This document shows, one piece after another, positions 15,484-49,310 of a stretch of 64,000 nt of DNA (position 1 is the stretch's first letter; each line of letters starts with the position of its first letter). Both the position numbers and the translations under genes were made by a program. The notes under the pieces are model-generated. The model worked only from the letters and a program-made list of their open reading frames with translations. It ran no database searches and was not told the origin of the DNA. The stretch is taken from NCBI RefSeq assembly GCF_050320075.1, contig NZ_CP190018.1; one strand, written 5' to 3'. The DNA is from Escherichia coli (GTDB taxonomy: Bacteria > Pseudomonadota > Gammaproteobacteria > Enterobacterales > Enterobacteriaceae).

Positions 15484-16251
15484 GGTAATGACTCCAACTT
15501 ACTGATAGTGTTTTATGTTCAGATAATGCCCGATGACCTTGTCATGCAGCTCCACCGATTTTGAGAACGACAGTGACTTCCGTCCCAGCCTTGCCAGATG
15601 TTGTCTCAGATTCAGGTTATGCCGCTCAATTCGCTGAGTGTAACGCTTGCTGATTACGTGCAGCTTTCCCTTCAGGCGGGATTCATACAGCGGCCAGCCA
15701 TCCGTCATCCATACCACGACCTCAAAGGCCGACAGCAGGCTTAGAAGACGCTCCAGTGTGGCCAGAGTGCGTTCACCGAATACGTGCGCAACAACCGTCT
15801 TCCGGAGCCTGTCATACGCGTAAAACAGCCAGCGCTGGCGCGATTTAGCCCCGACGTATCCCCACTGTTCGTCCATTTCCGCGCAGACGATGACGTCACT
15901 GCCCGGCTGTATGCGCGAGGTTACCGACTGCGGCCTGAGTTTTTTAAATGGCGGAAAATCGTGTTGAGGCCAACGCCCATAATGCGGGCGGTTGCCCGGC
16001 ATCCAACGCCATTCATGGCCATATCAATGATTTTCTGGTGCGTACCGGGTTGAGAAGCGGTGTAAGTGAACTGCAGTTGCCATGTTTTACGGCAGTGAGA
16101 GCAGAGATAGCGCTGATGTCCGGCGGTGCTTTTGCCGTTACGCACCACCCCGTCAGTAGCTGAACAGGAGGGACAGCTGATAGAAACAGAAGCCACTGGA
16201 GCACCTCAAAAACACCATCATACACTAAATCAGTAAGTTGGCAGCATCACC
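15484..16251 (-). mobile_element. insAB: IS1 copy 1 (768 bp), insA 15921..16196 and insB 15499..16002 on minus strand
   Basis: Terminal inverted repeats GGTAATGACTCCAACTTA and GGTGATGCTGCCAACTTA read directly; InsA/InsB proteins recognised; no target-site duplication at flanks. Confidence 0.95.
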
Positions 16252-16462
16252 CAAAAATGAAGGTACTGCCGAAAATATTCAGATAGAGCTAAGGGATGAC
16301 CAGGATGCGACGTTAAAAAATGGCGATAGCAAAACGGTTATTGTTGATGAGATCACTCGTAATGCACAGTTTCCACTTAAGGCAAGAGCTATCACGGTGA
16401 ATGGAAACGCAAGCCAGGGAACGATCGAGGCGCTAATCAATGTGATCTACACCTGGCAATAA
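16252..16462 (+). pseudogene. C-terminal fragment of a fimbrial subunit (ydeR/ydeS-like) fused to the IS1 end
   Basis: Frame ends with the fimbrial-subunit-type C-terminus NASQGTIEALINVIYTWQ; N-terminus missing. Confidence 0.55.
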
Positions 16463-16521
16463 CGTCGATTCGATTTTCTTAGCCTCCTTTTTAAATCAAT
16501 TTTTTAACCTTAGGATATATC

Positions 16522-17436
16522 ATGGGTAAAACAATAAGTATGAAGCTTCTGTTCGGTATTTATCTTCTATTAATGGCAGGCAAAGTTTTTGCCTTCAGTT
16601 GTAATGTCGATGGCGGGTCAAGTATTGGAGCAGGTACAACCTCTGTTTATGTTAATCTCGACCCTGTAATACAACCGGGCCAGAATCTGGTTGTAGACTT
16701 GTCTCAGCACATAAGTTGCTGGAATGATTACGGCGGCTGGTACGACACTGATCATATAAACCTGGTACAAGGCTCAGCTTTCGCAGGCTCTCTACAGTCA
16801 TATAAAGGATCGCTGTACTGGAATAATGTGACCTACCCCTTCCCGTTGACGACAAATACTAATGTATTAGATATTGGTGATAAGACACCGATGCCATTAC
16901 CGTTAAAACTCTATATTACCCCAGTCGGTGCGGCCGGTGGAGTTGTCATAAAAGCCGGGGAAGTTATTGCCCGTATTCATATGTATAAAATTGCCACGTT
17001 AGGAAGTGGAAATCCGCGTAATTTTACGTGGAATATTATTTCAAATAACAGTGTTGTTATGCCAACAGGCGGCTGCACCGTTGATAGTCGTAATGTCAAC
17101 GTGAATCTCCCGGACTTTCCTGGAAGCGCAGAAATACCCCTTGGCGTATATTGCTCAAGTGAACAAAAGCTCTCATTTTATCTTTCGGGTGCTACCACTG
17201 ACAGTGCCAGACAAGTGTTTGCTAACACAGCACCAGATGCAACAAAAGCATCGGGAGTGGGTGTCTCTCTGATGCGTAATGGAAAAATACTGGCTACGGG
17301 AGAAAACGTCTCCCTGGGGACAGTAAATAAAAGCAAAGTACCTCTGGGTTTAAGCGCAACCTATGGACAAACAGGAAACAAGGTTGCAGCCGGAACCGTC
17401 CAGTCAGTCATTGGTGTCACTTTTATCTATGAATAA
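16522..17436 (+). CDS. ydeQ: FimH-like fimbrial adhesin
   Basis: 304 aa with signal peptide; matches the length and character of K-12 YdeQ. Confidence 0.8.
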
Positions 17437-17508
17437 TTGTGATTTTGACATTGGTCTATGCGCTCCATTCACGAAAATTGCGCGGATATTTATTTTGTGA
17501 AGGCTATT

Positions 17509-17526
17509 ATCCTACATCTGTAAGAA
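17509..17526 (+). promoter_or_regulatory. EvgA-box-like inverted repeat upstream of ydeP (ATCCTACA-TC-TGTAAGAA)
   Basis: Matches the reported EvgA consensus TTCYTACA-NN-TGTARGAA with one mismatch; about 240 bp upstream of the ydeP start. Confidence 0.55.
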
Positions 17527-47300: not shown

Positions 47301-47421
47301 ATAATTTATAGTTTCGCGCCTGAGCCAGTGCTTGCTTCGGGGCAAAGCCCAATGCTGCTACTGTTGTTCCCGCCATACCGCCCGCGCAGATTTTAAAAAA
47401 TTGTCTGCGACTGACGTCCAT
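44374..47421 (-). CDS. fdnG: Formate dehydrogenase-N alpha subunit, selenoprotein with in-frame UGA (Sec) at 46834..46836
   Basis: N-terminal Tat signal MDVSRRQFFKICAGG; ORF 46834..47421 ends at TGA and the frame continues HGPTVASLAPTFGRGAMTNHW into ORF 44374..46785. Confidence 0.95.
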
Positions 47422-47485
47422 TGCTTTCCTCTTTTTTCAGGGGTATTACTGCGCGAGGAAACTAACAGTAAAATTCTGAATCTTT

Positions 47486-47499
47486 TTGCGCGAAATCAA
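47486..47499 (-). promoter_or_regulatory. Possible FNR half-site pair TTGCG-N4-ATCAA upstream of fdnG
   Basis: Resembles TTGAT-N4-ATCAA, about 70 bp upstream of the fdnG start; fdnG is known to be FNR/NarL regulated; site assignment tentative. Confidence 0.35.
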
Positions 47500-47652
47500 A
47501 AAGAACACGTGTTTGCCACAAAATAATCCGCCTGCGCAAATTGACCTACCTCAATAGCGGTAGAAAAACGCACCACTGCCTGACAGGCCAGTTAAAAAAA
47601 TGCTATAAAATTCAGCTTAATTTTTAACGGCAAGAGAGACAAAACAGCGAGC

Positions 47653-49310
47653 ATGACACGACAAAAAGCAACGCTCATAGGGCTAATAGCGATCGTCCTG
47701 TGGAGCACGATGGTAGGATTGATTCGCGGTGTCAGTGAGGGGCTCGGCCCGGTCGGCGGCGCAGCTGCTATCTATTCATTAAGCGGGCTGCTGTTAATCT
47801 TCACGGTTGGATTTCCGCGTATTCGGCAGATCCCGAAAGGCTATTTACTCGCCGGGTGTCTGTTATTCGTCAGCTATGAAATCTGTCTGGCGCTTTCCTT
47901 AGGATATGCGGCGACCCGTCATCAGGCGATTGAAGTGGGTATGGTGAACTATCTGTGGCCCAGCCTGACAATTCTCTTTGCCATTCTGTTTAATGGTCAG
48001 AAAACCAACTGGCTGATTGTACCAGGATTATTATTAGCCCTGGTTGGCGTCTGCTGGGTGTTAGGTGGTGACAATGGGTTACATTATGATGAAATCATCA
48101 ATAATATCACCACCAGCCCATTGAGTTATTTCCTGGCGTTTATTGGTGCGTTTATCGGTAATGACTCCAACTTACTGATAGTGTTTTATGTTCAGATAAT
48201 GCCCGATGACTTTGTCATGCAGCTCCACCGATTTTGAGAACGACAGTGACTTCCGTCCCAGCCTTGCCAGATGTTGTCTCAGATTCAGGTTATGTCGCTC
48301 AATGCGCTGAGTGTAACGCTTGCTGATTACGTGCAGCTTTCCCTTCAGGCGGGATTCATACAGCGGCCAGCCATCCGTCATCCATACCACGACCTCAAAG
48401 GCCGACAGCAGGCTCAGAAGACGCTCCAGTGTGGCCAGAGTGCGTTCACCGAAGACGTGCGCCACAACCGTCCTCCGTATCCTGTCATACGCGTAAAACA
48501 GCCAGCGCTGACGTGATTTAGCACCGACGTAGCCCCACTGTTCGTCCATTTCAGCGCAGACAATCACATCACTGCCCGGCTGTATGCGCGAGGTTACCGA
48601 CTGCGGCCTGAGTTTTTTAAGTGACGTAAAATCGTGTTGAGGCCAACGCCCATAATGCGGGCGGTTGCCCGGCATCCAACACCATTCATGGCCATATCAA
48701 TGATTTTCTGGTGTGTACCGGGTTGAGAAGCGGTGTAAGTGAACTGCAGTTGCCATGTTTTACGGCAGTGAGAGCAGAGATAGCGCTGATGTCCGGCAGT
48801 ACTTTTACCGTTACGCACCACGCCTTCAGTAGCTGAGCAGGAGGGACAACTGATGGAGATGGAAGCCACGGGAGCACCTCAAAAACACCATCATACACTA
48901 AATCAGTAAGTTGGCACCATTACCCGTTTATCTGGGCAGCCTACTGCACAGTAACGAATAAATACGCACGCGGATTTAACGGAATTACCGTTTTTGTCCT
49001 GCTAACGGGAGCAAGTCTGTGGGTTTACTATTTTCTCACGCCACAACCAGAAATGGTATTTAGCACGCCAGTCATGATTAAACTCATCTCTGCGGCATTT
49101 ACCTTAGGATTTGCTTATGCTGCATGGAACGTCGGTATATTACATGGCAACGTCACCATTATGGCGGTAGGTTCGTATTTTACGCCCGTCCTTTCCTCAG
49201 CGCTTGCAGCCGTGCTGCTCAGCGCCCCGCTGTCGTTCTCGTTCTGGCAAGGCGCGCTAATGGTCTGCGGCGGTTCCCTGCTCTGCTGGCTGGCGACACG
49301 TCGTGGCTAA
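47653..49310 (+). pseudogene. yddG: yddG (aromatic amino acid exporter, DMT family) interrupted by IS1
   Basis: N-terminal 168 codons (47653..48156) and C-terminal part (48925..49310) flank the IS1; 8-bp direct repeat CGTTTATC on both sides. Confidence 0.85.
48157..48924 (-). mobile_element. insAB: IS1 copy 3 (768 bp, variant isoform), insA 48594..48869 and insB 48172..48675
   Basis: Terminal repeats read directly; InsA/InsB differ at several residues from copies 1 and 2; flanked by target-site duplication. Confidence 0.95.

Follow-up and report, generated by a model that had tools for sequence, protein, structure and literature searches.

Insertion of IS1 in bdm and a probable IS1-mediated adjacent deletion of 10,551 bp near the terminus of an Escherichia coli chromosome

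The window analysed here, i.e. the whole stretch of 64,000 nucleotides, is a terminus-proximal part of the E. coli chromosome from an IS1-rich lineage and corresponds to about 1.53-1.60 Mb of the K-12 map, reversed. It carries three IS1 copies, all complete at 768 bp: copy 1 (15484-16251, minus strand), copy 2 (37468-38235, plus strand) and copy 3 (48157-48924, minus strand), the outer coordinates of which match exactly those given in a sequence-only reading of this DNA. Between copies 1 and 2 lies an intact block (16252-37467, plus strand) that is collinear with K-12 and contains a ydeR fragment, ydeQ, ydeP, safA, ydeO, ydeN, ydeM, yddA, yddB, pqqL, gadB, gadC, digH and dosC up to its nt 338; these gene names were taken from the annotation of NZ_CP123240.1, in which the segment is identical. 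The segment between copies 2 and 3 (38236-48156; its coordinates are those of L003 plus 36,398) contains a truncated bdm, sra, maeA, adhP, yddM, an IS200/IS605 tnpA, fdnIHG and the 5' part of yddG, a gene that is split in the annotation of E. coli YZLc1-3. The ydeP-gadBC block has the same gene order and orientation in the window, YZLc1-3, Ec-U3 and K-12. The proposal that IS1 copies of two isoforms, in mixed orientation, bracket ydeP-gadBC is borne out by these coordinates and the annotation.

The XerCD chromosome-dimer resolution site dif is present as a perfect 28/28 match at 5878-5905 on the plus strand, 9.6 kb from copy 1, and the segment between copies 1 and 2 lies 9.6-32 kb from it. The window contains 10 KOPS motifs (GGGNAGGG), compared with 3.95 expected, and their polarity switches at dif: the minus strand carries all nine motifs that lie right of dif. 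Five of them are located in the segment between copies 1 and 2 (at 16837, 21391, 25148, 26272 and 35140; range 16837-35147), all of them oriented toward dif.

In pairwise nucleotide alignments, the check that the sequence-only reading had called for, copies 1 and 2 were identical at 768 of 768 positions, in inverted orientation with 21,216 bp in between, in line with the identical InsA/InsB proteins and the 21-kb spacing described before. Copy 3 is the diverged isoform that had been recognized about 32 kb from copy 1 in direct orientation: it is identical to copy 1 at 732 of 768 positions (95.3%), with 32,673 bp from start to start, and the longest perfect tract between the 36 differing sites is 110 bp. 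With these 768-bp repeats sharing 95-100% identity, a chance origin is of no concern. The InsB peptide that had been quoted to tell the isoforms apart is correct, reading HDFPPFKKL in copies 1 and 2 vs HDFTSLKKL in copy 3. Compared with the K-12 isoforms, copy 3 is 95.4% identical to IS1F and 93.2% identical to IS1A, while the isoform of copies 1 and 2 is 96.4% identical to IS1A. The latter is a mosaic in which positions 1-480 are IS1A-like and positions 481-768 are similar to IS1F and copy 3, a pattern that shows past sequence exchange between IS1 isoforms.

All three copies have intact insA and insB with the -1 frameshift motif at A6C (TTAAAAAAC). In a profile search, the InsA domains PF03811 and PF12759 were detected in all three (E values across domains from 1e-21 to 1e-75), as was the InsB domain PF03400 (E about 1e-75). 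Each 768-bp element is bounded by imperfect terminal inverted repeats of about 23 bp (GGTGATGCTGCCAACTTACTGAT and GGTAATGACTCCAACTTACTGAT), with copy 1 ending in GGTGATGCTGCC...GGAGTCATTACC and the IRL of copy 3 differing at positions 4 and 8. K-12 IS1A/IS1E and IS1F likewise are 768 bp long with 23-bp imperfect inverted repeats starting GGTRATG, and the K-12 IS1 family also has insA, coding for a zinc ribbon and an HTH, and an overlapping insB' with the A6C -1 frameshift as well as the DDE_Tnp_IS1 domain. Moreover, IS1 family elements make simple insertions with 8-9-bp duplications, and copy 3 is such an insertion in yddG, flanked by the 8-bp target-site duplication CGTTTATC at 48149-48156 and 48925-48932. 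By contrast with K-12 IS1, neither isoform in the window equals a K-12 copy and two of the three copies, i.e. copies 1 and 2, lack a target-site duplication. Judged from the intact reading frames and ends together with the recent insertion of copy 2 relative to Ec-U3, the copies are probably active in transposition.

The missing target-site duplications of copies 1 and 2 are explained by deletions directly beside the two elements, of 1,821 bp and 10,551 bp, respectively. Copy 1 cuts a fimbrial usher gene, a ydeT homologue of which a truncated part remains at 13805-15483 (plus strand), and links it to the 3' fragment of ydeR. Relative to P393-F10 (5565-7385 of L002), 1,821 bp are missing, comprising 972 nt from the 3' end of the usher gene, ydeS and 293 nt from the 5' end of ydeR. 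The junctions of copy 1 are common to the window, YZLc1-3 and Ec-U3, and the usher fusion reading frame created there is listed in 110 index blocks. In all probability, copy 1 inserted long ago in the ydeT-ydeS-ydeR fimbrial operon, is shared across the lineage and has lost 1.8 kb beside it.

The history of copy 2 is legible from two related genomes. Over 64 kb the window has no mismatches to E. coli YZLc1-3 (NZ_CP123240.1), and the sole difference is a 10,551-bp gap at 37467/37468, with zero mismatches on either side of this junction and an offset of exactly 10,551. The deletion begins exactly at the left end (IRL) of copy 2 while the right flank is kept, so that the IRL abuts dosC nt 338 and the IRR abuts bdm at about codon 9. 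Lost are dosC from nt 339 to its end, dosP, ddpX, ddpABCDF, osmC and bdm codons 1 to about 9. In YZLc1-3 the same IS1 is present in bdm and flanked by the 8-bp duplication GAAAATTC, of which the window retains only the right copy. The sister strain Ec-U3 has copies 1 and 3, no IS1 at bdm, and an intact dosC-osmC region, which gives the direction of change. Copy 2 is the youngest of the three copies. In a search of 5,426 complete genomes of E. coli, none of the best-ranked matches had the junction of the deletion and nowhere was 80% or more of the query covered; the 10,551-bp deletion may be specific to one assembly.

At copy 2 the deletion starts at an exact IS terminus, leaves the flank on the opposite side as it was and has cost the element its duplication, all of which characterize IS-mediated adjacent deletions; the same holds at copy 1 for its 1,821 bp, where the original flank may be on either side. 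As in known adjacent deletions, one IS end and its flank are kept while new sequence adjoins the other end; also as in those, the element is retained and the duplication is gone, its ancestral form still being visible in YZLc1-3. There is no difference in kind from known cases, and what sets the present one apart is the content, a dosC'-dosP-ddpXABCDF-osmC-bdm' loss absent from the best-ranked matches in 5,426 complete genomes. Adjacent deletion is ordinary, well-understood and already known IS1 behaviour: Reif and Saedler (1975) reportedly described IS adjacent deletions at gal, and replicative deletions are said to have been described by Turlan and Chandler (1995; cited in PMC12428005). Missing duplications arise either by adjacent deletion or by IS-IS recombination, with examples from the long-term evolution experiment (LTEE) (PMC11708052).

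We consider it very probable that copy 3 is a plain insertion, that copy 1 is an old insertion with a 1.8-kb loss, and that copy 2 inserted in bdm and then caused an IS1-mediated adjacent deletion of 10,551 bp. At copy 2, an IS1 identical to copy 1 would first have inserted in bdm at about codon 9, and YZLc1-3 still shows this state; on the way to the window this IS1 would then have removed 10,551 bp beside its IRL, joining the IRL to dosC nt 338. What is directly observed are the structure of the copies, the match to YZLc1-3, the breakpoints and the lost duplications, while the order of events and the dependence on transposase are inferred. IS1-mediated adjacent deletion is the most likely mechanism and could have followed either of two routes with an identical product. 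In a one-step route, intramolecular replicative transposition into dosC would keep the element and its right flank and discard the interval as a circle; IS1 transposition within the chromosome is replicative (PMC12428005). In a two-step route, a local hop into dosC in the same orientation would be followed by recombination between the direct copies; local hopping accounts for IS-caused deletions (PMC5009759). A simple dosC::IS1 intermediate was found neither among the best-ranked complete genomes nor in JGI metagenomes, which is a weak negative.

The sequence-only reading had proposed that recombination between copies could invert or delete the ydeP-gadBC acid-resistance block. The copies are indeed possible substrates, but no such event is recorded and the block is collinear, so the claim stands as a potential: inversion or deletion of the block may occur, unrecorded by the sequence. 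A stronger version holds that the copies are mainly homologous-recombination substrates, and that inversions between copies 1 and 2 and deletions between copies 1 and 3 coexist in populations, through which acid resistance would be switched or lost. Inverted identical IS copies can invert, and direct copies can delete, a segment (PMC4173774, PMC5009759). Identical IS1 copies tens of kb apart, inverted and direct, are the usual substrates in the LTEE (PMC4173774) and in mutation-accumulation lines (PMC5009759), and copies 1 and 2 of the window, inverted and identical over all 768 bp at a distance of 21 kb, are of this type; IS1-IS1 recombination gave both inversions and deletions in the LTEE (PMC4173774), IS-IS recombination in mutation-accumulation lines amounts to about 4.5e-5 per genome per generation (PMC5009759), and the mosaic structure of copies 1 and 2 indicates that isoforms exchanged sequence previously.

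However, no inversion isomer was found among the two complete genomes that share the junction of copy 1 (YZLc1-3 and Ec-U3), and no inter-copy deletion or inversion was seen in the window compared with K-12, Ec-U3 and YZLc1-3, the block being collinear in all four; in this the window differs from the rearrangements in the LTEE and the mutation-accumulation lines. Divergence such as that between copies 1 and 3 lowers RecA-mediated recombination, which is policed by mismatch repair, and their 36 differences and longest identical tract of 110 bp argue against the proposed deletions. Moreover, adjacent deletions fully account for the missing duplications, and the flanks are unfit for an inversion: an in silico swap of the flanks gave no matching 8-9-mers, and with the collinear gene order we rejected an inversion as the origin of the missing duplications. 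A duplicative inversion by intramolecular transposition was likewise rejected as the origin of copies 1 and 2, given the collinear order, the failed flank swap and the presence in Ec-U3 of copy 1 without copy 2. The proximity of dif adds a polarity constraint, in that an inversion between copies 1 and 2 would reverse five KOPS 11-29 kb from dif (PMC2585057, PMC5357621), presumably at a cost, which is a concrete reason to expect selection against it. Finally, such an inversion would alter no coding sequence of the block and so would have no obvious effect on acid resistance. In total, we regard an acid-resistance switch or loss route of this kind as unlikely.

Deletions on the IRL side beside IS1 recur independently, in support of the adjacent-deletion reading. 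Ec-U3 has a 607-bp IRL-side deletion at copy 3 where 6 nt (TAAACG) still match the old flank, and CUWW10 has a 309-bp IRL-side deletion at an IS1A in exactly the same bdm nucleotide, without microhomology. In addition, the dosC-IRL junction was detected at the same nucleotide in 14 independent gut-metagenome contigs, the flanks of which are 2.1% diverged, and this recurrence in a diverged lineage points to a preferred IS1 target. A simple insertion in dosC would have a reciprocal junction (IRR, a 5-14-nt duplication and dosC), and searches for it in JGI metagenomes gave 0 matches, as did a metagenome scan for the IRR-'bdm junction. Because the same dosC junction is found in a 2.1%-diverged metagenomic lineage and CUWW10 has the same bdm junction with a different IS1 isoform, it has been considered that IS1 targets dosC nt 338 and bdm codon ~9 recurrently and with single-nucleotide precision, and that it repeatedly and independently disables the c-di-GMP module DosC/DosP and the surroundings of bdm and osmC in gut E. 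coli lineages. We hold this broad reading to be rather improbable. If true, the recurrence could reflect a target preference for sequence resembling IS ends (GGTGNTG) or, alternatively, selection that favours loss of these genes for biofilm formation and signalling.

It is highly improbable that the 10.5-kb gap arose in assembly or through a microhomology-mediated deletion, independent of transposase, that ended at IS1 by chance. The first IS1 bases and the first deleted dosC bases share 4 nt (GGTG), the chance of at least 4 matching nt at the junction being about 0.4%, and such a match is also expected from transposase-independent illegitimate recombination; the 6 nt kept at copy 3 in Ec-U3 fit the same explanation, and the junction is in none of the best-ranked of the 5,426 complete genomes. 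However, a repeat can collapse in assembly only if each breakpoint lies in a repeat, whereas dosC nt 338 lies in unique sequence, the breakpoint is an exact IS1 terminus, the deletion at an IS1 terminus in CUWW10 has no microhomology, and slippage over 4 nt is unlikely to have recurred at the same dosC nucleotide in the 2.1%-diverged metagenome contigs. A composite IS1 transposon with inverted arms, similar to Tn1681 and carrying acid resistance as cargo, is suggested by the identical intact copies around 21.2 kb with both IRR ends outward, but was rejected and has a negligible probability: the outer flanks (CTGGAACAC and GAAAATTCA) differ and form no duplication, the cargo has the native location and gene order that it also has in K-12 and in Ec-U3, a strain without copy 2, and copy 2 arrived after copy 1.

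The case has small significance beyond strain-level bookkeeping. The series from Ec-U3 through YZLc1-3 to the window shows first the insertion and then the adjacent deletion at single-base resolution, undisturbed by any further difference. gadBC, ydeO and ydeP are intact and now flanked by recombination substrates, and the case illustrates the erosion of the non-essential terminus region by IS1, which has affected bdm, osmC, yddG, fimbrial genes, the c-di-GMP module dosCP and the dipeptide transporter ddp.

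The window holds three IS1 elements, two of which bear adjacent-deletion scars. All three are complete (768 bp), i.e. copy 1 at 15484-16251 on the minus strand, copy 2 at 37468-38235 on the plus strand and copy 3 at 48157-48924 on the minus strand. A repeat search of the window found a perfect inverted pair of 774 nt (15483-16256 and 37463-38236), a second inverted pair of 95% identity (37466-38240 and 48152-48926) and a matching direct pair. Together with reading and slicing of the ends in Python, this search bears out the three copies and coordinates of an earlier, sequence-only reading. 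That reading also described copies 1 and 2 as inverted and encoding identical InsA/InsB and copy 3 as a diverged isoform, and asked for a pairwise nucleotide alignment; in this alignment, the oppositely oriented copies 1 and 2 agree at 768/768 positions, copy 3 agrees with either at 732/768 (36 differing positions from copy 1, 95.3% identity), and the quoted InsB peptides recur as HDFPPFKKL in copies 1 and 2 and HDFTSLKKL in copy 3. Each copy encodes InsA (PF03811, PF12759) and InsB (PF03400, E about 1e-75) and has the frameshift site TTAAAAAAC.

Compared with the K-12 IS1 elements fetched from NC_000913.3, copies 1 and 2 are 96.4% identical to IS1A/IS1E, and copy 3 is closer to IS1F (95.4%) than to IS1A (93.2%). 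Copies 1 and 2 are isoform mosaics: positions 1-480 are IS1A-like (473/480) while positions 481-768 are IS1F/copy 3-like (284/288 to copy 3 versus 267/288 to IS1A), and therefore copies 1 and 3 are 98-99% identical over the last 288 nt. The mosaic shows that IS1 isoforms have exchanged sequence.

The sequence-only reading overlooked the duplication status of the copies. Copy 3 splits yddG and is flanked by the 8-bp target-site duplication CGTTTATC; it is a simple insertion. By contrast, slicing found no duplication in the flanks of copies 1 and 2. Swapping these flanks in silico gave no match; thus, the missing duplications are not the footprint of an inversion between copies 1 and 2.

Relatives were sought with megablast among 5,426 complete E. 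coli genomes. The nearest, YZLc1-3 (NZ_CP123240.1; chicken, China), has 0 mismatches to window 1-37467 and, once shifted by exactly 10,551 bp, 0 mismatches to window 37468-64000. In YZLc1-3, the IS1 of copy 2 lies within bdm codon ~9 with GAAAATTC, an 8-bp duplication, on both sides; in the window, its right end (IRR) has the same flank while its left end (IRL) is joined to dosC nt 338. The 10,551 bp absent from the window comprise the rest of dosC, dosP, ddpX, ddpABCDF, osmC and the first bdm codons. In a second relative, Ec-U3 (NZ_CM192149.1; human urine, Burkina Faso), copies 1 and 3 are present, bdm is free of IS1 and the dosC-osmC region is intact, and therefore the order is from an Ec-U3-like state, through the bdm insertion (YZLc1-3), to the adjacent deletion in the window. 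Because the window and YZLc1-3 are otherwise without differences in 64 kb, we conclude that the 10.5-kb dosCP-ddp-osmC scar arose very recently. A search of the 5,426 complete E. coli genomes found its dosC-IS1 junction in none of the best-ranked ones, and no place covering at least 80% of the query.

At copy 2, the right end and its flank are unchanged, the left end abuts DNA from farther away and no duplication remains; this is the textbook signature of IS-mediated adjacent deletion, which is the most likely mechanism. In one step, IS1 would cause a replicative intramolecular deletion next to the IRL end of copy 2; replicative transposition within the chromosome, including such deletions, is described for IS1 in the passage of PMC12428005 that cites Turlan & Chandler 1995. 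In two steps, IS1 would hop locally into dosC and the two direct copies would then recombine, which is consistent with mutation-accumulation data in which local hopping accounts for the lengths of IS-caused deletions (PMC5009759). In evolving E. coli, an absent duplication goes back either to a deletion adjoining the IS or to recombination between IS copies (PMC11708052). The one-step and two-step routes would give identical products, so the sequence is compatible with either. The junction (37467/37468) has 4 nt of microhomology (GGTG); however, microhomology acting without transposase is a less likely cause of the 10,551-bp deletion, as the breakpoint is the exact IS1 terminus and the same dosC junction nucleotide recurs in another lineage.

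At copy 1, 1,821 bp (the 3'-terminal 972 nt of the usher gene, ydeS and the 5'-terminal 293 nt of ydeR) are missing compared to P393-F10, in which the chaperone-usher-ydeS-ydeR-ydeQ operon is intact. Identical junctions are present in YZLc1-3 and Ec-U3, and the usher'::IS1 fusion ORF turns up in 110 index blocks of the public-assembly collection; thus, copy 1 is an old lineage marker.

The sequence-only reading proposed that recombination between copies could invert or delete the ydeP-gadBC block. Copy identity and orientation make this possible; however, no inter-copy inversion or deletion was found in the window, and the block keeps the gene order and orientation of K-12, Ec-U3 and YZLc1-3. 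RecA-dependent recombination limited by mismatch repair is slowed by short perfect tracts, and a rate between copies 1 and 3 would be lowered because their longest perfect tract is 110 bp. Recombination is predicted to invert 21,216 bp between copies 1 and 2 (768/768, inverted), to invert 9,921 bp between copies 2 and 3 (732/768, inverted) and to delete 32,673 bp including gadBC, ydeO, ydeP, safA and copy 2 between copies 1 and 3 (732/768, direct). Recombination of this kind is well documented for IS1 (PMC4173774). The inversion between copies 1 and 2 would disrupt no gene of the block.

The XerCD site dif (5878-5905) is a perfect 28-mer match. Ten FtsK-orienting KOPS motifs were found in the window versus 3.95 expected, and their strand switches exactly at dif, with one plus motif (161) to the left and nine minus motifs (6042-35147) to the right; thus, the window takes in the terminus and the point where the two replichores meet. 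Of the nine minus motifs, five (16837-35147) are located between copies 1 and 2, 11-29 kb from dif, and would therefore point away from dif after inversion. KOPS guide FtsK to dif (PMC2585057), and PMC5357621, where it cites Perals 2000, places the polarised zone needed for dimer resolution at about 10 kb each side of dif. A fitness cost of the inversion via reversed KOPS is plausible. The 10.5 kb deleted from the window carries three further correctly oriented KOPS in YZLc1-3.

Between hipA and dif, adjoining an ISNCY remnant (4800-5808), lies a gene for a 450-aa SIR2-family protein (3233-4585, minus strand) that hits the PADLOC candidate defence family PDC-S25 (E 2e-82), with weaker hits to ThsA, LmuA and Dsr; no gene is annotated there in K-12. 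From dif to the fimbrial operon, about 7 kb (6199-12882) of redox/detoxification genes (a LysR regulator, a DJ-1/PfpI-type amidotransferase, two aldo/keto reductases, an NAD(P)H oxidoreductase, a quinol monooxygenase and gene fragments) has only a yneL remnant as K-12 counterpart and is a dif-adjacent variable region. An IS200/IS605 tnpA (42176-42634, minus strand) lies between yddM and fdnI, where the K-12 annotation lists none. Finally, fdnG (44374-47421, minus strand) shows up as a pair of ORFs (44374-46785 and 46834-47421) on a mechanical ORF list and is annotated as one CDS in YZLc1-3; we take this appearance to reflect the in-frame selenocysteine UGA codon rather than disruption.

Deletions adjoining the IRL end recur among the strains compared. 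In Ec-U3, copy 3 (1204-1971 of the fetched segment L004) lacks an extra 607 bp on its IRL side relative to window 48925-49531, with loss of the yddG 3' part; the new flank equals the old one over 6 nt (TAAACG), above chance expectation. In the unrelated strain CUWW10, whose flanks match YZLc1-3 at 96.6-97.5% identity, an IS1A (2502-3269 of the fetched segment L012; 765/768 to K-12 IS1A) sits at the exact bdm nucleotide of copy 2 (window 38235/38236) and is accompanied by a separate 309-bp deletion on its IRL side, toward osmC. Moreover, exact matches to the 119-aa DosC'-IS1 fusion ORF lie on 14 short contigs from metagenomes (ERR525781, ERR525782, JGI 3300039313), and DNA alignment of human-gut contigs L008-L010 places the dosC-IS1 junction (3338/3339) at the same nucleotide as window 37467/37468, in flanks with 72-74 mismatches in 3.4 kb (2.1% diverged). 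These contigs stop inside IS1 and so show only the dosC side; a JGI metagenome scan matched neither the reciprocal junction of a simple dosC::IS1 insertion nor the IRR-'bdm junction. Because the same nucleotides are hit in diverged lineages, the dosC and bdm sites appear to be preferred IS1 targets that were hit independently. Altogether, IS1 behaviour in the window is already known IS1 biology throughout, and the sole mildly novel angle is that in unrelated lineages IS1 is found at the very same nucleotides, dosC nt 338 and bdm codon ~9.
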